From: Promethearchaeia archaeon
Lineage (GTDB): Archaea > Asgardarchaeota > Lokiarchaeia > Sigyniarchaeales > SOKP01
DNA: 64,000 nucleotides
Assembly: GCA_029856145.1 (NCBI GenBank)
Contig: JAHQWK010000001.1
Coordinates: 96,001 to 160,000, forward strand
Direction: 5' to 3'
The stretch's first letter is position 1; each line of letters opens with the position of its first letter. The notes under the pieces were generated by a model, which was not told the DNA's origin, did not search any database, and worked only from the letters and a program-made list of their open reading frames with translations. The translations under genes and the position numbers were made by a program. Of this stretch, positions 17,192 to 41,238 are shown piece by piece.

Positions 17192-17284
17192 GCGCGATTA
17201 GTCTAGTGGTTAGGATCTCGGCCTTCCATAGGTAGAACTAACTGAAGATAGCCGATGACCCGGGTTCAATTCCCGGATCGCGCA
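17192..17284 (+). tRNA. tRNA-Gly(TCC) with canonical 37/38 intron (17229-17249, 21 nt)
   Basis: GCGCGAT/ATCGCGC acceptor; TCGGC-CT-TCC-A[intron]A-GCCGA; CCGGG-TTCAATT-CCCGG; CTTC/GAAG BHB helix. Confidence 0.93.
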
Positions 17285-19550: not shown

Positions 19551-21602
19551 ATGATTTCCCGTGAAAATTTAATGAGATCAAAACTAAATTTTAAGAAAAA
19601 AATAATAACTGTATTGATCTTGTTCTCTTTCTCAGCTATAATTACTACTACTTTCAATTTTTCTCAAGTAGAAACTGATAAAAGTTCGGACTTTTACGAA
19701 GATACTAATTTAATTAACCTAAATTTGAAAATCTCAAAAATATCGGAAAAAATTCATATTTATGATAATTGGTCTGCTGCTAAGTTTGATGGAATATGTA
19801 CGGGGAATGGTACTTATTCCAATCCGTATATTATAGAAGATTTAGTAATCGATGGTAGTGGTTCAGGAAGTTGTATTTGGGTTGAAAATTCAGAGGTTTA
19901 CTTTATAATCGAAAATTGCACTCTCTATAATTCGGGAGGTTATTGGGATGATTCAGGAATCCGATTATCATATGTTAAAAATTCCCAAATAATTAATAAC
20001 ACATGTTTAAACAATTTCTATGGGATATTTTTATCTGGTTGTGCTAATAACACAATTACAGAAAATACCGCAAATTCTAACAGGGATGGAATATACTTGA
20101 ATGGTGGTGCTTTTAACAATGTTTCGGGAAACATCGCAAATCGCAATGATCATTTTGGGATTACTTCATATTCTAATCAATATAACACCATTTCGGAAAA
20201 TAAAGTGATTAATAATTATTATGGAATAGAATTATTTGAGAGTTATAATAACACAATTTCAAACAATTTTGTATATAGCAACGATAATACAGGGTTACGT
20301 TTACATTCAGGACGTAATAATACAATCTCTGGAAATAGTGTGATCATAAGTTATAATGGGATATATGTTTCTATTAGTAATAACAACACTATTTCAGGAA
20401 ATTCAGTAAATGACACCGTTTATGGGATACGTATGAACTTCTGTCACAATAACAATATTACGGGAAATAATATAAACGACAATCTAATTGGCCTAAATTT
20501 ATATGAGTGTGAAAATACCATTGTTTCGGGCAATCTAATGAATAAATGTGGAATTTGCATATCAGGCTCGTTAAAATCACTAAGATCCTATGATATTGAT
20601 ACTACTAATCTAGTGAATGGAAAACCGGTATATTATTATAATAATAAATTGAATTTGGGAACAAATGATTTAATTAATGCTGGGCAGGTGATATTAGTTA
20701 ATTGCAATTATTCAATAGTATCAAACTTACACATTTCTAATGCTTCTCTTGGAATTTCATTAAACTATTGTAATAATATTAGCATTTCAGGAAATGATGT
20801 AAGCTATAATAAGATTAATGCAATCGGTTTATATTATAGTTATAATAATATCGTTTCGGGAAATAACGTATGTGATAACTTGAATGGAGTGTATTTAGAT
20901 AATAGTGATTTTAACACTGTTTTGGAAAATACCGTAGTTAATAATAATTATGGGCTATATATATTTAATAGTACTGGCAATAATGTTTCGGGAAACACAG
21001 TATGTAATGACAATGTTCATGGGATACATTTAGATGGTAGTAATTCTAACTTTGTTTTGGAAAATACCGTATTTGATAATTCTTTTGGAATATACTTAAG
21101 TTTTTATAGTAACTATAATACTATTTCAGGAAATAACGCAAATAATAATTCCTGGGGGATATATTTAGAAGTTAGTGATTATAACACTGTTTTGGGAAAC
21201 ATTGCTAATAGTAATACTGAATCTGGGATTTATGTAACTTTGAGTTATCATAATACGGTTTCAGAAAACATCGCAAATAATAACAATGAATCTGGGATAT
21301 TTTTATTTAATAGCGATTATAACACTATTTCGAGAAATACAGCAAATAACAACAATGAGGGGATATATTTATATTATAGTAATTATAACAGCATTTCAGG
21401 AAATACCTTACTGGGAAATATTGAGTGCATTGTAGAAGAAGATTGCGAAGGAAACACTTTTAGAGATAATGGCTCTTGTAACTACGGTGTAGTTACTCCG
21501 GACTTCTCAATATATATTTTGTTCTCTATACTTAGCATTCTATCCGCATTCTTACTTATCCTAAGTATAATAATAAAAAAATCTAAAAGATTCAATTCTT
21601 AG
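19551..21602 (+). CDS. NosD/CASH parallel beta-helix membrane-anchored surface protein
   Basis: N-terminal hydrophobic segment, GNGTYSNPYIIEDL, many GIYL..S.NN.ISGN repeats, C-terminal TM plus basic tail. Confidence 0.88.
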   Translation: MISRENLMRSKLNFKKKIITVLILFSFSAIITTTFNFSQVETDKSSDFYEDTNLINLNLKISKISEKIHIYDNWSAAKFDGICTGNGTYSNPYIIEDLVIDGSGSGSCIWVENSEVYFIIENCTLYNSGGYWDDSGIRLSYVKNSQIINNTCLNNFYGIFLSGCANNTITENTANSNRDGIYLNGGAFNNVSGNIANRNDHFGITSYSNQYNTISENKVINNYYGIELFESYNNTISNNFVYSNDNTGLRLHSGRNNTISGNSVIISYNGIYVSISNNNTISGNSVNDTVYGIRMNFCHNNNITGNNINDNLIGLNLYECENTIVSGNLMNKCGICISGSLKSLRSYDIDTTNLVNGKPVYYYNNKLNLGTNDLINAGQVILVNCNYSIVSNLHISNASLGISLNYCNNISISGNDVSYNKINAIGLYYSYNNIVSGNNVCDNLNGVYLDNSDFNTVLENTVVNNNYGLYIFNSTGNNVSGNTVCNDNVHGIHLDGSNSNFVLENTVFDNSFGIYLSFYSNYNTISGNNANNNSWGIYLEVSDYNTVLGNIANSNTESGIYVTLSYHNTVSENIANNNNESGIFLFNSDYNTISRNTANNNNEGIYLYYSNYNSISGNTLLGNIECIVEEDCEGNTFRDNGSCNYGVVTPDFSIYILFSILSILSAFLLILSIIIKKSKRFNS

Positions 21603-21806
21603 AGATCCAAGTGAGAAACTACTAAAGGAAAAAAGAATGGAGATTTTAAAATAGTAATTATTGATTTTTTTGTATTTTTAATTCTCTCAATTTTATTATA
21701 AATCCAGAGTTTTGTAACAAATTCTAATCTTAAAATAATTTCAGTATAGACAAAACATTTAAATATCTGAATCCAATATATATTTGCAAATAACTTTATC
21801 TTCTGG

Positions 21807-23735
21807 ATGAAAATAAAATATAGAAATTCCAATTTAACTAAAATGACTAGGTTAAAATTAAATTCAATAACTTTAGGAATTCTATTCATATTCTCAATTA
21901 TAATTGGTGCTAGTTTGAATTTTAATGCAGGATCATATAATTATGGTTTTAAAAATAGCGTCGAATTTACTTTAGATAATGTAAATTTAAAGGCCTCAAA
22001 AGTATCAGGAAAAATTCATATTGATAATAATTGGACTGCTGCTGAGGCGGCTGGAATATGTACGGGGAATGGTACTTACTCCAATCCTTATGTTATAGAA
22101 GACTTGATAATTGATGGTGGTGGATTAGAAAATTGTATCTGGATTGAGAATTCCAGCGTTTACTTTAGAATTGAGAATTGTACTTTATATAATTCTGGAG
22201 ATTATAATTACGCAGGAATCCAATTATCATATGTTAATAACTCCCAATTAATTAATAACAATTGTTCCTCTAATTTTTATGGGATTTGGTTATGGAACAG
22301 TAATAATAACACGATTTTGGGGAATAACGCAAATAATAACGAAGAGCTTGGGATATATTTACTGAACTGTAATAATAACACGATTTTAAACAATATTATA
22401 AATAACAATATTTGTGGGATATATTTAACTGGTTGTAACAATACAATTTCCGGAAATATTGTGAGTAAGAATCAGGTTGGGATACATATATTTAATTCTG
22501 ATGATACAATTGTTTCAGGAAATATAATGAATAATTGTGGGTTAATTGTATCAAGTTTACCTTATACAATAGGTTCCCCTAATATTGATATTACAAACTT
22601 AGTTAATGGAAAACCATTATATTACTACTTTAATGAAGGTAATTTAGGATCGAATGATTTTACGAATGCTGGCCAAGTTATATTAGTGAAATGTAATGAT
22701 TCAATAATTTCAAACTTACAAATTTCTAACACTTCTGTTGGAATTTCATTACACTATTGTAATAATATTACCGTTTCAGGAAATGACGTAAATAATAATA
22801 AAATTTGTGCGATAGATATATACTCTGGTTATTATAACAATATTTCACGAAATAACTTAATTGACAACGGGATGGGGATATATTTAAGAGAAAGTAACGA
22901 TAACATCATCTCGGGAAACACAGCAAATAATAATACTCATGATGGGATAACTTTATATAGTAGTTGGTACAACGACCTTTCAGGAAACACTGCAAATAAT
23001 AACAAGGGAATTGGAATATTTCTATCTTTGTGTTATTATACCATGATCCGGGGAAATAATTTAAATAACAATATGAACGGGATTTGGTTAGATGCTAGTA
23101 GTTTTAACACTGTCTTGGAAAACACAGCAAATAATAACAAGGGAATTGGAATATTTCTATCTTTGTGTGTTTATAACACTATATCGAAAAACAACTTCAA
23201 TAATAATACTCATGATGGGATAGCTTTATATAGTAGTTGGGACAACGACCTTTCAGGAAACACTGCAAATATTAACAGTAAAAATGGGATTAAATTAGAT
23301 TATAGTTGGCGGAACAACCTTTCAGGTAACATTGCAAATATCAACAGTAAAAATGGGATAAAATTATACGCTAGTGATTATAACGACCTTTTAGGAAACA
23401 CTGCAAATGAAAACAACCAAACAGGGATAAAATTAATAGAAACTAATTACAATATTATTTCAGGAAATATTGCAAATGAAAACAACCAAACAGGGATAGA
23501 ACTAATAGAAAGTGATTTCAATCTTATTACGGGAAATACTTTAATAGGAAATAATATCTGTATATCAGAAGTAGATTGTGTAGGAAACTACTTTAGAGAT
23601 AATGATTGTCGTACTTCTAGCGAAGTCACTTTAGACATTTCAGGATATAGCCTTTTGTTTCTGCTTGGTATAATATCTCTTGTATTTATCACTTTTAGCA
23701 ATAAAATAAAGAAATCTTCAAGATTCAATTCTTAA
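21807..23735 (+). CDS. NosD/CASH parallel beta-helix surface protein (paralogue 2)
   Basis: Same architecture; ISGY-TM-KIKK Loki-CTERM-like tail. Confidence 0.88.
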   Translation: MKIKYRNSNLTKMTRLKLNSITLGILFIFSIIIGASLNFNAGSYNYGFKNSVEFTLDNVNLKASKVSGKIHIDNNWTAAEAAGICTGNGTYSNPYVIEDLIIDGGGLENCIWIENSSVYFRIENCTLYNSGDYNYAGIQLSYVNNSQLINNNCSSNFYGIWLWNSNNNTILGNNANNNEELGIYLLNCNNNTILNNIINNNICGIYLTGCNNTISGNIVSKNQVGIHIFNSDDTIVSGNIMNNCGLIVSSLPYTIGSPNIDITNLVNGKPLYYYFNEGNLGSNDFTNAGQVILVKCNDSIISNLQISNTSVGISLHYCNNITVSGNDVNNNKICAIDIYSGYYNNISRNNLIDNGMGIYLRESNDNIISGNTANNNTHDGITLYSSWYNDLSGNTANNNKGIGIFLSLCYYTMIRGNNLNNNMNGIWLDASSFNTVLENTANNNKGIGIFLSLCVYNTISKNNFNNNTHDGIALYSSWDNDLSGNTANINSKNGIKLDYSWRNNLSGNIANINSKNGIKLYASDYNDLLGNTANENNQTGIKLIETNYNIISGNIANENNQTGIELIESDFNLITGNTLIGNNICISEVDCVGNYFRDNDCRTSSEVTLDISGYSLLFLLGIISLVFITFSNKIKKSSRFNS

Positions 23736-23885
23736 ATATGCTTACGAAAAATTCTATAAGGATTTAAGAATCAATTCTAGATTTGTTATTTGTATATTTT
23801 AACATTTAGATCTTTTAATCAAAATATTTAAATATTTGATTATGAATATTTTTTTACATCCTCTTATATTCTCAGCATAAATGAC

Positions 23886-25661
23886 ATGAAATCAAAGGCA
23901 AAAGCAAAAATAACAATTTTAATAATTTTGGGAATTTTCTTCAACTTCTCAACTTTAATTATGACGAATCTCAAATTTAATACTGGAAATTTTAATAACG
24001 TCTTAGACTATAGTGATGATTTCAATATTGATACCAAAAATTTGAAGATCTCAAAAATCTCGGTAAAAATTCATATAATTAATAACTCAGGTTGGGTAGA
24101 TTTTAGAAATGCAGGATATTGTTCTGGTGAAGGGACTTATTCTTATCCTTACGTCATCGAAGATTTAGTAATAGATGGTGGAGGTTCGGGGAGCTGTATC
24201 ATTATTGAAAATTCCAACGTGTATTTTAGGATTGAAAATTGTAATGTGTATAATTCTGGTGATGATTATTATTATAATGGCGATGCGGGAATTAGTCTAT
24301 TCACGGTTCGTAATGGAATGATAATTGATAATAATTGTTCAAATAACTATCTTGGGATACGTTTATATGATTGTAATAATAACACCATTTCAGGAAACAT
24401 GGTTAATAACAACAGATATGGGATATATATAGTGCATAGTAATTTTTCTACCATTTCAGAAAATAACGTAAATAAAAACGGGTTTGACGCGATAGCTTTA
24501 CGTTTTAGTAATTCTAATAATATTTCAAGAAATAATGCAAGTTTCAATTATAATTGCGGGATATGTTTATATAATTGTAATAATAACACCATTTTGGGAA
24601 ATACAGCTAATGATAACGCATATGGGATATCTTTAGGTTATAGTGATTTTACCACCATTTCAGAAAATAAAGCAAACAACAACAACTATTATGGGATATA
24701 TTTATCTTTTACTTATTCTAACAATATTTCGAGAAATATAATGAATAAATGTGGTTTAAGGATAAAAGGTTCTCTTGAAGAATTAATTTCTAATGAAATC
24801 GATACTACAAATTTAGTGAATGGAAAATTTTTGTATTATTATACTAATCAAATGAATTTAGGACCAAACAATTTTACTAATGCTGGACAGGTTATATTGA
24901 TCAAGTGTAATAATTCATCAATAACAAATATAAATACATCATACAGTTCTATTGGTATTTATTTATATTGCTGTAATGACAACACGATTTCGGGAAATTA
25001 CGCAAGTTTCAATAAGGATGATGGGATACATTTAGATGGAGGTTCTAATAATATCATTTCAAATAACACCACAAATAACAACAGATATTATGGGATATTT
25101 TTAGGTGGAAGTTCTAATAATATCATTTTAAATTGCACCTCAAATAACAACAGATATTATGGGATATTTTTAATTGGAAGTGATAATTCTATCGTTTCGG
25201 GAAACACCTTTAATAGCAATATCAAAGGGATAGATTTAAGTTATGGAGATAATTGCACAATTTCGGAGAATAATGTATGTGAAAATAGTGGTAGTGGGAT
25301 ATACTTATATATAAGTAATAATAATACTATTTCGGAAAACACAGTAAATTACAACGATAATGGAATATGTTTAGAAGATGAGAGTGATAATAACACCGTT
25401 ACAATGAACACCGTAAATTACAACGATAATGGGATAATATTGAGTTCAAGTGATTACAATATAATTTCAAGAAACATTTTAAATGGAAATGATATTTGTA
25501 TTAGTGAATTTAATTCCGAAGGTAATGTTTTTGTAAATAACTATTGTTATGATCCATTTCAAGACAAAATTCTATTCTTTCTACTTGTTACTCTTTCCAT
25601 TGTATCAGTCATTATAAGTTTTACGTCAATCTTTATATATAAAAAAACGAGAAAATTTTAG
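23886..25661 (+). CDS. NosD/CASH parallel beta-helix surface protein (paralogue 3)
   Basis: Same architecture; GEGTYSYPYVIEDL, IDTTNLVNGK insert, C-terminal TM. Confidence 0.88.
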   Translation: MKSKAKAKITILIILGIFFNFSTLIMTNLKFNTGNFNNVLDYSDDFNIDTKNLKISKISVKIHIINNSGWVDFRNAGYCSGEGTYSYPYVIEDLVIDGGGSGSCIIIENSNVYFRIENCNVYNSGDDYYYNGDAGISLFTVRNGMIIDNNCSNNYLGIRLYDCNNNTISGNMVNNNRYGIYIVHSNFSTISENNVNKNGFDAIALRFSNSNNISRNNASFNYNCGICLYNCNNNTILGNTANDNAYGISLGYSDFTTISENKANNNNYYGIYLSFTYSNNISRNIMNKCGLRIKGSLEELISNEIDTTNLVNGKFLYYYTNQMNLGPNNFTNAGQVILIKCNNSSITNINTSYSSIGIYLYCCNDNTISGNYASFNKDDGIHLDGGSNNIISNNTTNNNRYYGIFLGGSSNNIILNCTSNNNRYYGIFLIGSDNSIVSGNTFNSNIKGIDLSYGDNCTISENNVCENSGSGIYLYISNNNTISENTVNYNDNGICLEDESDNNTVTMNTVNYNDNGIILSSSDYNIISRNILNGNDICISEFNSEGNVFVNNYCYDPFQDKILFFLLVTLSIVSVIISFTSIFIYKKTRKF

Positions 25662-25966: not shown

Positions 25967-26128
25967 GATAAATTTTAATGAAAAATTACTAAAATAAATC
26001 AGGATACTGATTTTAACAAGTAAACGATATACATGAAAAAACTTTATATGATATTTTTTCCTTTTTAAATTACGAATTTTGATATTTTAAAAACTTAAAT
26101 GTTTTATAAAGTAAAAATTCTCAACCTA

Positions 26129-26290
26129 GCCAAGGTGGCGTAGCCTGGGAACGCACTAGAATCATCAGAATTACTGATAAAGGTGAAACTGAAGATCTAG
26201 GTATCGAGTAAAATGGGCTCTTCGTCCATTTTCGGGAAAGTTCAAAGGGATTCGCCTTGAACGGATTCCGGAATCATCTCTCCCTTGGCA
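26129..26290 (+). tRNA. tRNA-Phe(GAA) with three non-canonical introns (30/31: 26160-26187; 51/52: 26209-26238; 58/59: 26246-26275)
   Basis: Spliced product GCCAAGGTGGCGTAGCCTGGGAACGCACTAG|ACTGAAGATCTAGGTATCGAG|AGTTCAA|ATCTCTCCCTTGGCA folds as a full cloverleaf; each intron forms a hairpin with BHB-like ends. Confidence 0.85.
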
Positions 26291-26303: not shown

Positions 26304-26870
26304 TTAACTACGATAATAATCAGGATTTATTTTTCGCATATGATTCATTTTTCCTCTCAACTCATAACTTTTAAAATTTAGAAAAGTTTGATAAAATTCT
26401 AATGTAGACGGAGCTCTACCATATTTTTGGTAGTATTTTTCGCTAAAATCATACACCTTTTGATGTCTGGTATTCTCATCCGTATATAATCCCTTATCCT
26501 TTAAATGCGTAATTATATATTTTTTAAGGTCTGGTTTTTCTATTAAAAAATCCCGTAATTGAACACTTAAAACACCTTGGTAATGGATCCTTCCATTGGG
26601 ATTTAACTCTTTGAATTGATTAATATGATTAGTTAATTGTTTGTTTATTGATATTAAATCTTTTACTTTCAAATCTCCTTCTAAAATGGAGATTATTTGT
26701 TCCTTTTCCATTTTCTTTTTAGTTTCTTGCGGCTGTTTTTTTGCAATTTCATTAATCCTATTCAATCTTTTACGATTTTGTTTTAAAGTATTAAATTCTT
26801 CTACAATATTCTCAATATTTGAAAATTCATAGTTTTTGGCATAAAGTGTACCATGATGTCTATAACGCAT
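26304..26870 (-). CDS. Hypothetical protein (possible C-terminal HTH)
   Basis: 188-aa ORF directly downstream of tRNA-Phe; no recognised family. Confidence 0.5.
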   Translation of the reverse strand: MRYRHHGTLYAKNYEFSNIENIVEEFNTLKQNRKRLNRINEIAKKQPQETKKKMEKEQIISILEGDLKVKDLISINKQLTNHINQFKELNPNGRIHYQGVLSVQLRDFLIEKPDLKKYIITHLKDKGLYTDENTRHQKVYDFSEKYYQKYGRAPSTLEFYQTFLNFKSYELRGKMNHMRKINPDYYRS

Positions 26871-27053
26871 ATTTTTCCTTTCATCAACTTTTAATTTAGC
26901 TTCATTATTTGGTTTAATAATCCAAATTTAAAATTTTTTCAAGAATTAAAAGATTTAATTAGTTATACTTTAATTAAGAATGAAAACTCAGCAAGATCTC
27001 TAATAAAAGCTTTTTTAGATTTAAATGCAATTGAAATACTCGTAATTGATAAT

Positions 27054-27755
27054 TTGGATATAACTTCTAAGGTGTTAATGGATGAGGCCGTTCTACAATT
27101 AAGAGAGATATACAAAAGTGAAGATACTATTCCTTTTAATGAATTGCAAATGAATTTTGTAAAAATCACTTCAGAAATCTTAAGAAAATCTGTTGAATTG
27201 TTGAAACTTGAAGGTCGTATTAAATTAGAAGCAGAAAACTTAACTAATAAAATTAAAAATAATTATGAAACAGTAAAATATGTAATTGGATTGATCATGG
27301 GTTGTTTCGACTTGTTAGAAAATAGATTAAGTAATAAATTTAAAAATTATTTTCACCCAAAAAAAACTCCTTGGCAGCTGTATTTTCCTCCAAAAGATCG
27401 AAAAGAAATCCGACTATGGTTAAAGGATTATTTTAATCTCCCTCAATATGTTAATCAATATCATTCACTTTCATTTTTATTTGAAGAATGGATTTTTACG
27501 CATTTTCGGGAAGTAAGACATTTCAAAGCTCATAAGGAGATTGATACAGCACAAACTATATTGAAAAATAATCTTTATAAAATTGAATTTGATAACAACG
27601 AATATAAATATACGCTATACCAATTGAGAGAAATCTACAAAGATTCTTTTGGCTTTTTATTATGGATTAAACATCTAGTCGCTAAAATTTACTTTAACCA
27701 AGGAGATCAACCATTAAATGAAGATTTGAATAAATATTTACTCAAGAATTATTAA
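27054..27755 (+). CDS. Hypothetical protein, candidate HEPN-like
   Basis: Helical ORF with Rx4H motif (VRHFKAH). Confidence 0.5.
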   Translation: MDITSKVLMDEAVLQLREIYKSEDTIPFNELQMNFVKITSEILRKSVELLKLEGRIKLEAENLTNKIKNNYETVKYVIGLIMGCFDLLENRLSNKFKNYFHPKKTPWQLYFPPKDRKEIRLWLKDYFNLPQYVNQYHSLSFLFEEWIFTHFREVRHFKAHKEIDTAQTILKNNLYKIEFDNNEYKYTLYQLREIYKDSFGFLLWIKHLVAKIYFNQGDQPLNEDLNKYLLKNY

Positions 27756-27867
27756 AATGCAAGCTGGGAAGTGAAAGAGAATCCTTAGAAAGATATAAAG
27801 AATCTTTGTAGTTTTTTCAAAAAAATGATTTTATTGAAAATTAATGAAAGAAATTTGAATAAATAAA

Positions 27868-28983
27868 ATGAATGATAATTGGGAAAAGGAAGGACTTAAA
27901 TATTTGGATAAAATTTTTGGGGAAGTACTATCTTTAGAAGAATTTGAAAAGAATTTGCAAAAAAATACAAATAAAGAGTTATTGTTTTCCTTTTTTAAAA
28001 ATGTAATAAATTTTTTAGGGATGTCTTTTAAACTCAGTGAAGAACTTAAACAATATATCCAATTAGATATGCCCCCTAAAAAATATATAGAGACAATTTT
28101 AAAAGTAACTGCTCAATTTTCTAAGAAAAATCCTAAAATTGTAAAACAAATTGAAGATGTAGTTAAAAATATTGTACAAATTTTTCAATCTTTAGATTTC
28201 CATAAAGAATTACTTTCCATTTCTACGAGTAATGAGTTTGAAGATTTGATAAAAAAAAGATTTCTCGAAGAATTGGATAGAGCAGAGCAAATAAATAGAA
28301 ATTTGGTAGCAGAATCATTTAAATTAGCTCTTAAATATGTAGAACGCCAGCAACAGCCAGATAAATTATTTACATTATCGAGTTATAATAAACTCGGGAT
28401 ACAACTTGAAAACCTGAAAACCGATACAACAATGAACCTTATTGTGAGTTTTTTGGAGATGATTCTTACAAAAAAACAGGAGATATTCAAGCTTTCCGAT
28501 GATGAACTTGTGGACTATTTGAATGAATTCGTGAGCAGGTTAGGAAGAGCCATTGAACCCTATTTAAAAGCAATCATTGTTACCATTTATAATCTCCAAA
28601 AAATATGCCAAAAAGAAGATTTTGATGATTTTGAGAAAGGATTTGGGTATTACCTAAGTCCACGCAGTTCCTTACGAATCCAACATTCCAAAAAAGAAGA
28701 TTACATTGATTATCGAAATGCAATTAACCATATAAGTGGATTTGATGTATCTTTTAATCGGAAGCTAGAAGATATAACGATAAAATTTTACTTAAAACGG
28801 GAAACAAGAGGTAGACTATATTGGAGCAAGGCTGTAGAAATGGGATTAAAAGAATTTGAAAAGCTATTTAGGGATTTTCGTAAGTTTCAGAATTCATTTT
28901 TCACTTTCTATGATGTTTATATCAAATCCGTTGATAAAAACTACGAATATCAAATCTTCCCTTTCAAAGATATCTTTAATTAG
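27868..28983 (+). CDS. Hypothetical protein, candidate C-terminal HEPN domain
   Basis: GRAIEPYLK helix and YRNAINH (RNxxxH) motif. Confidence 0.55.
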   Translation: MNDNWEKEGLKYLDKIFGEVLSLEEFEKNLQKNTNKELLFSFFKNVINFLGMSFKLSEELKQYIQLDMPPKKYIETILKVTAQFSKKNPKIVKQIEDVVKNIVQIFQSLDFHKELLSISTSNEFEDLIKKRFLEELDRAEQINRNLVAESFKLALKYVERQQQPDKLFTLSSYNKLGIQLENLKTDTTMNLIVSFLEMILTKKQEIFKLSDDELVDYLNEFVSRLGRAIEPYLKAIIVTIYNLQKICQKEDFDDFEKGFGYYLSPRSSLRIQHSKKEDYIDYRNAINHISGFDVSFNRKLEDITIKFYLKRETRGRLYWSKAVEMGLKEFEKLFRDFRKFQNSFFTFYDVYIKSVDKNYEYQIFPFKDIFN

Positions 28984-29134
28984 TAATAAATAAAAAACCG
29001 AAGTTTGGAATTCTATGAATGAAAATAAGGCAAATATGCAAAAATATAGTAATGTAAAACCAGATCAGAAACAAGTTCTCTTAGAAATTGAGAGGTTTAC
29101 AAATGCTGAAATACCGGATTACCAAAATGTAACC

Positions 29135-29908
29135 TCAGAGAATTTTGGTATAGTTCTTGAAAATATTAAAACTTATATGTAGAGTTTTATTATGTTTATG
29201 AATATGTATGGAACCATCAGTATCAACTAATCCTTCAATTATTTTTTTCCTTGATATTGTAAATTTAATTGCATCTGCGTCTTTTGGTTCATATATTCCT
29301 GGTCTCTTGTTTAATGTCTTTTTCATCAGTTCATAAACATATAGAGCATATTGAGATTCTTGAGATCTATTTAATGTAACTCTGAAACGACGTCCATAGT
29401 GGGGGATACATCCGTCTCCAAGACCAATACAAATTTTTTCTGCCAAAGCTTTACTTTCTTTTAATTTCCCACTTGGATTTTCTTTGAATTCTAAATCTTT
29501 TTTATCATGTTCTTGTATATATTCCTTTAAACTTAAATTTTTAAGTTGATTTTCAAACCTATCATTCTCATCTGATTTTATTCTCTTATCTTTTAAACTA
29601 TGCACTTTTTCTTTTAAATTAACTTCCTTTTTTTTAGTATTCTCCTGTATAGAGGCTTTTTTTTCATCTTTTTCATCTTTCGGCGTGAATTTTACTTCGA
29701 ATTGTTCATCATTGCTTCTTAGTTCGTCCCCAGATTCAAATGTATCACCAAGATCTTTATCAAAGTCCAAATCTTCATCCAGGGGGTCAAATTCATTTTC
29801 TAAGTCAAGCTCATTCATGTCCTCTTTTTCATTAAATTCAGTTTCTTTATCATTCTGTTCTTCATCGAATTCTTCACTATTATATTCTCCCATAAATTCA
29901 ATCCTCAC
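29135..29908 (-). CDS. LAGLIDADG-like endonuclease remnant with acidic N-terminus
   Basis: LAEKICIGLGDGCI and IEGLVDTDGSI motifs; ends soon after motif 2, so probably truncated. Confidence 0.65.
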   Translation of the reverse strand: MRIEFMGEYNSEEFDEEQNDKETEFNEKEDMNELDLENEFDPLDEDLDFDKDLGDTFESGDELRSNDEQFEVKFTPKDEKDEKKASIQENTKKKEVNLKEKVHSLKDKRIKSDENDRFENQLKNLSLKEYIQEHDKKDLEFKENPSGKLKESKALAEKICIGLGDGCIPHYGRRFRVTLNRSQESQYALYVYELMKKTLNKRPGIYEPKDADAIKFTISRKKIIEGLVDTDGSIHIHKHNKTLHISFNIFKNYTKIL

Positions 29909-30207
29909 GCTTTATGTTTATCATATTTTAACTTTTTATATTAGTCATTTGTATCCTCTTTTTTGGTCAATATCTGGTATAATTTGGTTTTTCATAGTAC
30001 CATTTGCAGGTTTATTTGCCGAAAAGTACTTAAGATTCGACTACAAAGCTAATAGAATACCAGAACCAAATGAAGAACTTAATAAAAATATAAAAAAAAT
30101 TTACAACGAAGCTTCAGCCATTTTTAAATTATCTCCAATAATAAATATTATATTTCGACATTCCCTATCTATTTCTTGACAAATTAGGTTAAAAAAAGGA
30201 ACCCAAG

Positions 30208-30600
30208 TTGAAGGATAGAAATAGGCTTAAATTAACAATAATTACTTGGAAAACTTTAAACGGCCTCTGTATTCTGTTCAGTGCATTTTTATTAATGAGT
30301 ATTTTAACAGCTATTTATTATCTCATTGCTGATCCTCCAGATTTGCCTTGCCTTATGTGTGCTGGATGTCCCTGTCCATATAGAGATTTTATCATAGCCA
30401 GAACTTATTATCTTAATTTTTTATTCCCAACCTTGATTTTACTTAATACGATATTTATCGCTATTTGTATTATTTTAATTGCAATTCTGAAACATAAGTA
30501 TGACTCTCTCAAATTAACTCTTTTTAGAAAAAAATATGGAAACAGTGAGGATTTATTCAAAAAATATAAAGCTACACTTCAATCTAATGAAGTACATTAG
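30208..30600 (+). CDS. Two-TM membrane protein with Cys-rich loop
   Basis: TM - PCLMCAGCPCPY - TM. Confidence 0.55.
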   Translation: MKDRNRLKLTIITWKTLNGLCILFSAFLLMSILTAIYYLIADPPDLPCLMCAGCPCPYRDFIIARTYYLNFLFPTLILLNTIFIAICIILIAILKHKYDSLKLTLFRKKYGNSEDLFKKYKATLQSNEVH

Positions 30601-30772
30601 AACTAGATTTATTAGAAATGTTGATGCCCATTCTCTCTATGTTCAGATGCGGTTTTTCAAAGGAATTTTCATTGAAATCAGACTCTGAATTTACCATTCA
30701 AGAAATTGGTTTATTTAAAAATTTCTATGTTACTAATGAAAGTTTCTAGTTTGCGAAACTATCGTAATTTAA

Positions 30773-31213
30773 ATGACTATGATATATGCATATAGTATAG
30801 TGCCAGGAAGTAAAAATCCAATAGAATCACATAAACATACAAAAAGAGAAGATCAAACAAGAAAATTAAAAGAATCAAATTATAAGTTGGAAATAGAAAA
30901 GTGGTACAAAGAAGGAAGGAAATTATCAATGAGGAGCCAGTTAGAAGAGATATTAATTAAAAAATCTGGGCTACCCCTATATAAATTAAGAATTTTGATA
31001 GATATATACGAAGGGAATGATTTTCGAAAACGTAAATCTTTCAAAAAAATAATCGATTATTTTCAGAACCTGAATCTTATTGAAAAGAAAGGAAATCAAT
31101 GGATTGTGTCGAAAAAGGGTAATTTATTAATGATAAAATTGTTTCCATTTTTAATAAAAAGTCTTGAATGGAGACCTAGTATGCTATTTCCAGAAGATTC
31201 TAGGGTATATTAA
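30773..31213 (+). CDS. Hypothetical protein with probable C-terminal winged helix
   Basis: FQNLNLIEKKGNQWIVSKKGN wing pattern. Confidence 0.5.
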   Translation: MTMIYAYSIVPGSKNPIESHKHTKREDQTRKLKESNYKLEIEKWYKEGRKLSMRSQLEEILIKKSGLPLYKLRILIDIYEGNDFRKRKSFKKIIDYFQNLNLIEKKGNQWIVSKKGNLLMIKLFPFLIKSLEWRPSMLFPEDSRVY

Positions 31214-41130: not shown

Positions 41131-41238
41131 GCGGCTATAGTGTAGCCCGGTCTAGCATTCGGGACTGTCACTCCTGCGACAATGCGTGACTAAACGTCGC
41201 TCATCGTGAAGCGGGTTCAAATCCCGCTAGCCGCGCCA
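41131..41238 (+). tRNA. tRNA-Asp(GTC) with non-canonical intron at 48/49 (41181-41210) and encoded CCA
   Basis: GCGGCTA/TAGCCGC; CGGGA-CT-GTC-AC-TCCTG; CGAC[30 nt]GCGGG-TTCAAAT-CCCGC; TGCG/CGTG BHB helix. Confidence 0.9.

Follow-up and report, generated by a model that had tools for sequence, protein, structure and literature searches.

A tRNA-Phe(GAA) gene with three relaxed-motif introns and a 7-nt internal exon in a Loki-type archaeon

Positions 26129-26290 (+) of the window, i.e. the whole 64,000-nt stretch of contig JAHQWK010000001.1 (assembly GCA_029856145.1, Promethearchaeia archaeon) analysed here, raise the question of whether a tRNA-Phe gene broken at three places is functional and, if so, how its transcript may be spliced and how its introns arrived. 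The first-pass annotation had proposed that removal of 28, 30 and 30 nt at positions 30/31, 51/52 and 58/59 yields a complete tRNA-Phe(GAA). This was confirmed with a covariance-style, motif-free parser written for the analysis, which permits inserts anywhere and recovers a structure of four exons (31, 21, 7 and 15 nt) and three introns within the 162 nt:

26129..26159 (+): exon 1, tRNA positions 1-30, with 17a
26160..26187 (+): intron 1, 28 nt, position 30/31; central helix CACT/GGTG paired 4/4; detached inner hairpin
26188..26208 (+): exon 2, positions 31-51; anticodon GAA at 26191-26193
26209..26238 (+): intron 2, 30 nt, position 51/52; central helix 3/4; 9-bp h' hairpin
26239..26245 (+): exon 3, 7 nt, AGTTCAA, positions 52-58
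26246..26275 (+): intron 3, 30 nt, position 58/59; central helix 3/4; 8-bp h'; 4-bp h
26276..26290 (+): exon 4, positions 59-73; CCA not encoded

Predicted spliced product and uniqueness of the gene in the assembly

The spliced product is a 74-nt tRNA-Phe(GAA) with G20 and A73, in which all four stems are paired. It is identical at 72 of 74 positions to an intron-less homologue (L042), the two differences making up one compensated T-stem pair. Removing the inserts restores a canonical tRNA, as it does for archaeal BHB tRNA introns. The 7-nt exon that had been noted between introns 2 and 3 is where it was claimed to be, and the hairpin described within each of the three introns is present. Introns 1 and 3 can each be slid by one base (to 31/32 and 59/60) with the product unchanged; these placements were discarded on BHB geometry, which picks 30/31 and 58/59, and the 30/31 register is also fixed by homologues in which intron 1 has a first base other than A (e.g. 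L027). A split or permuted tRNA was ruled out, all exons being collinear inside the 162 nt.

As had been anticipated, standard scans overlook this gene: ARAGORN, run in the window, and Rfam cmscan both missed it. In the assembly (3.55 Mb, 30% GC, 97% complete, 32 contigs), a genome-wide scan gave it a score of 51, with the best non-tRNA at 25, and in a census 39 tRNA genes, one of them for Phe, stood clearly apart from the rest in score (45 vs 25); about eight expected isoacceptors are absent from this census. Pattern search, census and a forced-GAA scan all returned this single Phe gene and no other credible one, a uniqueness that holds for this assembly. Phe codons account for about 5.4% of long-ORF codons. 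It is very probably the only phenylalanine tRNA gene of the organism. Two ARAGORN predictions of tRNA-Phe elsewhere were rejected: that at C18:15577 is a Thr(CGU) gene interrupted at 37/38 by an intron with a 4/4 central helix, and that at C11:16642 is AT-rich non-tRNA sequence. The other matches of the forced-GAA scan were worse re-readings of Met, Gly and Cys genes.

Roughly 31 of the 39 tRNA genes have introns (12 with two or more, 4 with three), giving a load of roughly 1.2 per gene; where a class II variable arm runs into an insert, the numbers are approximate. Among the remaining tRNA genes are the following: 1) A three-intron tRNA-Ile outside the window (G000:C8:10419-10592, +) has a UAU anticodon reading; searches of this genome and of 60 related ones detected no TiaS (PF08489). 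2) In tRNA-Leu(GAG) (G000:C18:16916-17088, +), the introns at 14/15 and 30/31 are 87% identical to each other (shuffled maximum 0.80), possibly as a copy made within one gene. 3) A better reading of the ARAGORN 'tRNA-Trp' at window 17192-17284 (+) is tRNA-Gly(UCC), whose canonical 37/38 intron is 21 nt long. 4) A tRNA-Asp(GUC) at window 41131-41235 (+) has a 30-nt intron at 48/49 with a 4/4 central helix. 5) A tRNA-Sec is present on C8.

Intron occupancy among relatives and in known systems

The Phe anticodon arm is present in 89 of 135 family genomes, nearly always once. With a search pattern limited to genes that have no intron from position 31 to position 48, 91 homologues were parsed and found to contain 0 (3 genes), 1 (19), 2 (31), 3 (24) or 4 (14) introns at nine positions, with a mean of 2.3; these homologues are relatives, not independent samples, and the parse used a small BHB bonus, so that helix counts are partly circular. 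The comparison of occupancy across relatives suggested at first pass thus revealed variably filled sites. Each of the three sites is occupied in some homologues and empty in others, as is characteristic of BHB tRNA introns, with exon sequence near-constant and three genes intron-less. The three-intron design is ordinary for this family. Internal exons of 7 nt were found in 8 genes, of 8 nt in 13 genes and of 5 nt in one. A tRNA-Phe with five introns, the published maximum per gene, is present on a metagenome contig (L110:366-586, Ga0114925_10258855), its introns lying at 15/16, 30/31, 39/40, 51/52 and 58/59.

In raw counts across related genomes, a T-loop intron accompanies the 51/52 intron in 19 of 20 genes and introns at 52/53 and 53/54 in 0 of 13, and those at 15/16 and 19/20 occur together in one case only. 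One bin (G003) holds three different Phe genes (L025, L038 and L039), two of which fall with a different genus in the tree of the neighbouring gene, which suggests contamination.

The multi-intron gene itself is real, but the statement that such tRNAs are characteristic of Thermoproteales was too narrow, as Asgard examples have been published and such genes are the rule in the present family. In three Asgard genomes, 92-95% of tRNAs contain introns, over half with several (Valentin-Alvarado et al. 2024, PMC11291895). An Asgard preprint reports 2.2 introns per gene and up to five, gives a three-insert tRNA-Phe(GAA) as the example in its Fig. 2a, finds a two-subunit EndA in most genomes, and describes no link to mobile elements and no known route of intron arrival (Goswami et al. 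2026, bioRxiv 10.64898/2026.10.13.758758). The present gene resembles the tRNAs of both studies in its several short non-canonical BHB introns, its evasion of scans and the patchy gain and loss of its introns. Whereas those papers centre on Atabeyarchaeia and Freyr-/Jordiarchaeia, the text of the preprint making no mention of Lokiarchaeia, the genome studied here is Loki-type, and its intron load is lower than in those groups and near the 0.91 given in the preprint for other Asgard families. With Thermoproteales (Sugahara 2008 and Fujishima 2010, as relayed by PMC4090602), it has in common relaxed BHB introns, non-canonical positions and a predicted (αβ)2 EndA with the specific loop. Unlike the intron transposition of Thermoproteales, sharing here is between genomes at the same gene and not between genes of one genome; no look-alikes of the three introns were detected in the other tRNA genes of this genome (best 0.73, shuffled range 0.67-0.80). 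The gene adds to the known cases of a published Asgard trait and extends it to a Loki-type family.

BHB motifs, predicted splicing machinery and possible order of removal

All three junctions form BHB motifs of the relaxed type only, with central helices paired 4/4, 3/4 and 3/4 and intron-side helices of 0, 9 and 8 bp; the 4-bp central helix between two 3-nt bulges is thus present in relaxed form, above shuffles. Intron 1 combines a perfect central helix with flanking helices that are near absent (h'=0, h=1). With base-shuffled introns at the same sites, P was 0.008 for the 4/4 central helix of intron 1, and 1e-4 and 1.5e-4 for helix plus hairpin in introns 2 and 3, respectively. Among the homologous introns at 30/31, the central helix is 4/4 in 49 of 49, the partner base being G or A with exon T28 and always G with C28, and the intron hairpins show compensatory changes. 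To judge from these substitutions, the central helices are under selection. Introns 2 and 3 each have a mismatch (A46·G and G53·A, respectively) at the outermost pair of the central helix, which had been put forward as a shared feature. This was not supported, the pair in homologues being AG, AT, AA or AC at 51/52 and GA, GC or GT at 58/59. Since the pair varies freely at both sites, the A·G mismatch is tolerated rather than conserved.

The genome encodes two EndA paralogues, on different contigs (C11:135511-136107 and C24:98927-99544). The alpha subunit aligns to 3P1Z_B (E 1e-34), is closest to the alpha subunit of Aeropyrum pernix and, like the A. pernix (αβ)2 enzyme with its L1 loop (3P1Z), has the catalytic Tyr/His/Lys (Y139/H147/K178) and a Lys (K56) in the crenarchaeal-specific (L1/CSL) loop, aligned to the A. 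pernix loop. In the second paralogue, Asp occupies the column of the catalytic His; this protein is likely a non-catalytic beta subunit. This combination of an alpha subunit containing catalytic triad and loop lysine with a non-catalytic beta would classify the enzyme as (αβ)2-type, in agreement with the broad-specificity EndA that had been expected of this genome; its cleavage of the present substrates is a prediction. The L1 loop has been reported throughout TACK and Asgard and tied to relaxed-motif cleavage (PMC5829648). RtcB is also present, and the host thus has both the endonuclease and the ligase for BHB introns.

We consider it highly probable that the locus is a single functional tRNA-Phe(GAA) gene whose three introns are removed by an (αβ)2 EndA, with RtcB rejoining the exons. 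The alternative of a pseudogene broken by insertions, with a compact tRNA-Phe residing in unassembled DNA, could draw on the incompleteness of the assembly, in which several isoacceptors are missing from the census, and on the predicted minimum-energy fold, from which all three BHBs are absent (imposing them takes about 3-8 kcal/mol at 37 C, intron 1 being the costliest at 6.6-8.2 kcal/mol). It is nevertheless very improbable, since the exons are undamaged and their stems compensated, nearly all matching relatives have the locus in a single copy and the helix partners within the introns are under selection. For the functional gene we propose that i) transcription would yield a precursor of 162 nt or more, ii) the heteromeric (αβ)2 EndA would cut each relaxed BHB after the second base of the 3-nt bulges, iii) RtcB would ligate the exons, with CCA added afterwards, and iv) most likely, each intron would be excised and its junction ligated before the next is cut, because simultaneous cleavage of both neighbours would leave the 7-nt exon attached by no more than two base pairs.

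In terms of BHB geometry, the 7-nt exon gives one bulge base to the motif of intron 2 and four helix and two bulge bases to that of intron 3. The cores of the two motifs fit without overlap and both can form in the full precursor; therefore, the order of splicing is not forced. The 4-bp Watson-Crick outer helix of intron 3 can form only once intron 2 has been spliced, and the outer helix of intron 2 consists of three G·U pairs that compete with the core of intron 3. Since removal of intron 2 completes the outer helix of intron 3, removal of intron 2 before intron 3 would be mildly favoured, and ordered splicing is plausible. In the folding model, the motif of intron 3 becomes about 2 kcal/mol cheaper after removal of intron 2 and that of intron 2 becomes 1.2-1.7 kcal/mol cheaper after removal of intron 3, and the energies give no clear order. 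An obligatory order set by the 7-nt exon, with intron 2 first, intron 3 next and the anticodon-stem intron last, would agree with the dependence of intron 3's outer helix and energy on the 51/52 junction and with Cyanidioschyzon merolae, in which ordered intron removal tracking BHB stability has been shown experimentally (PMC3728597). We regard it as conceivable but rather doubtful, given the compatible cores, the reciprocal gain of intron 2 and the existence of relatives with intron 2 but not intron 3 and of others with intron 3 but not intron 2.

In addition, intron 3 contains TTGAAC, the exact complement of exon GTTCAA (window 26240-26270), which is not fully conserved in homologues; an alternative hairpin between the two could hide the 7-nt exon.

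Neighbouring DNA and a possible route of arrival of intron 3

Two features flank the gene:

26035..26049 (+): BRE/TATA-like element some 90 nt before the gene, within a conserved block; probably the promoter, to judge from its motif
26304..31213 (no strand assigned): variable block with six orphan ORFs between the tRNA and a conserved aminotransferase gene; not part of the splicing system

The upstream block matches about 50 related loci, mostly with 80-99% identity over 40-190 nt. The stretch 19551-25661 (+), immediately upstream of the tRNA, encodes three NosD-like beta-helix proteins in tandem, with hydrophobic segments at their termini; the Pfam check covered the last of the three. None of the downstream orphan ORFs has a Pfam match above the cut-off; one of them, encoding 188 aa at 26304-26870 (-), has homologues just downstream of tRNA-Phe, with patchy distribution, in four genera.

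The first-pass annotation had described a decayed island downstream and had linked it to disruption of an integrase target by the T-arm introns. The extra DNA stood up to comparison: most relatives lack the stretch of about 5 kb that here separates the tRNA from the aminotransferase gene, and in many relatives the aminotransferase gene or its neighbour was found within the fetched 1-5 kb downstream of the tRNA. Its nature as an island did not, since no tyrosine integrase/recombinase (PF00589) was detected in the whole assembly, as against 14 of 14 control genomes (the search covered tyrosine and not serine recombinases), no duplicate of the tRNA 3' end (att repeat) was found and GC is flat across the block. 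The notion that the T-arm introns are kept because they destroy an attachment site, the block being a decayed element, exists in the literature (PMC4090602) and fits the absence of the stretch from most relatives. It is improbable here, as the marks of integration are lacking, the extra DNA adjoins the gene despite two T-arm introns, and the Asgard census reports no association with mobile elements (Goswami et al. 2026). The downstream block is a variable slot rather than a demonstrable integrated element and lends no support to protection by introns.

Intron 3 is 93% identical to a 59/60 intron in another genus (L094/L105), a form known from a single genome; the median identity of introns across genera at a shared position is about 0.6. 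The proteins flanking the intron on the L094/L105 contig are closest to those of their own genus and 38-63% identical to those of the present genome. The same intron family is found at 58/59 in the five-intron gene, which is sister to a third genus, and a tree of one neighbouring protein rejected the carriers as one clade (p-AU 2e-11). The GGAA strand of intron 3 pairs 3/4 in both the 58/59 and the 59/60 registers, and some 58/59 carriers, with GAAC, GAGC or GGAT, pair 4/4. We tentatively propose that intron 3 moved laterally between genera, in a direction that we infer, by recombination through the near-identical tRNA-Phe exons, together with a slide of one nucleotide; the sequences of the 4/4 carriers would fit a pairing since restored in some of them. 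Slow evolution with repeated replacement, instead of lateral exchange, is also possible, as a few other introns reach an identity of 0.9 or more across genera. The core of intron 3 was not found in viral contigs, i.e. no viral donor was seen, and two bacterial matches to it were rejected as not being tRNAs. A literature search on intron sliding in archaeal tRNAs returned nothing relevant.

By conventional annotation, this genome would be wrongly scored as lacking tRNA-Phe. The occurrence of almost the same intron at neighbouring positions in different genera is relevant to how introns arrive and, if the proposed exchange is true, would provide a traceable route of arrival, which the Asgard preprint left open. 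The series of 91 genes at a single locus, together with the five-intron copy, provides a test set both for how splicing around a 7-nt exon is ordered and for the arrival of introns.
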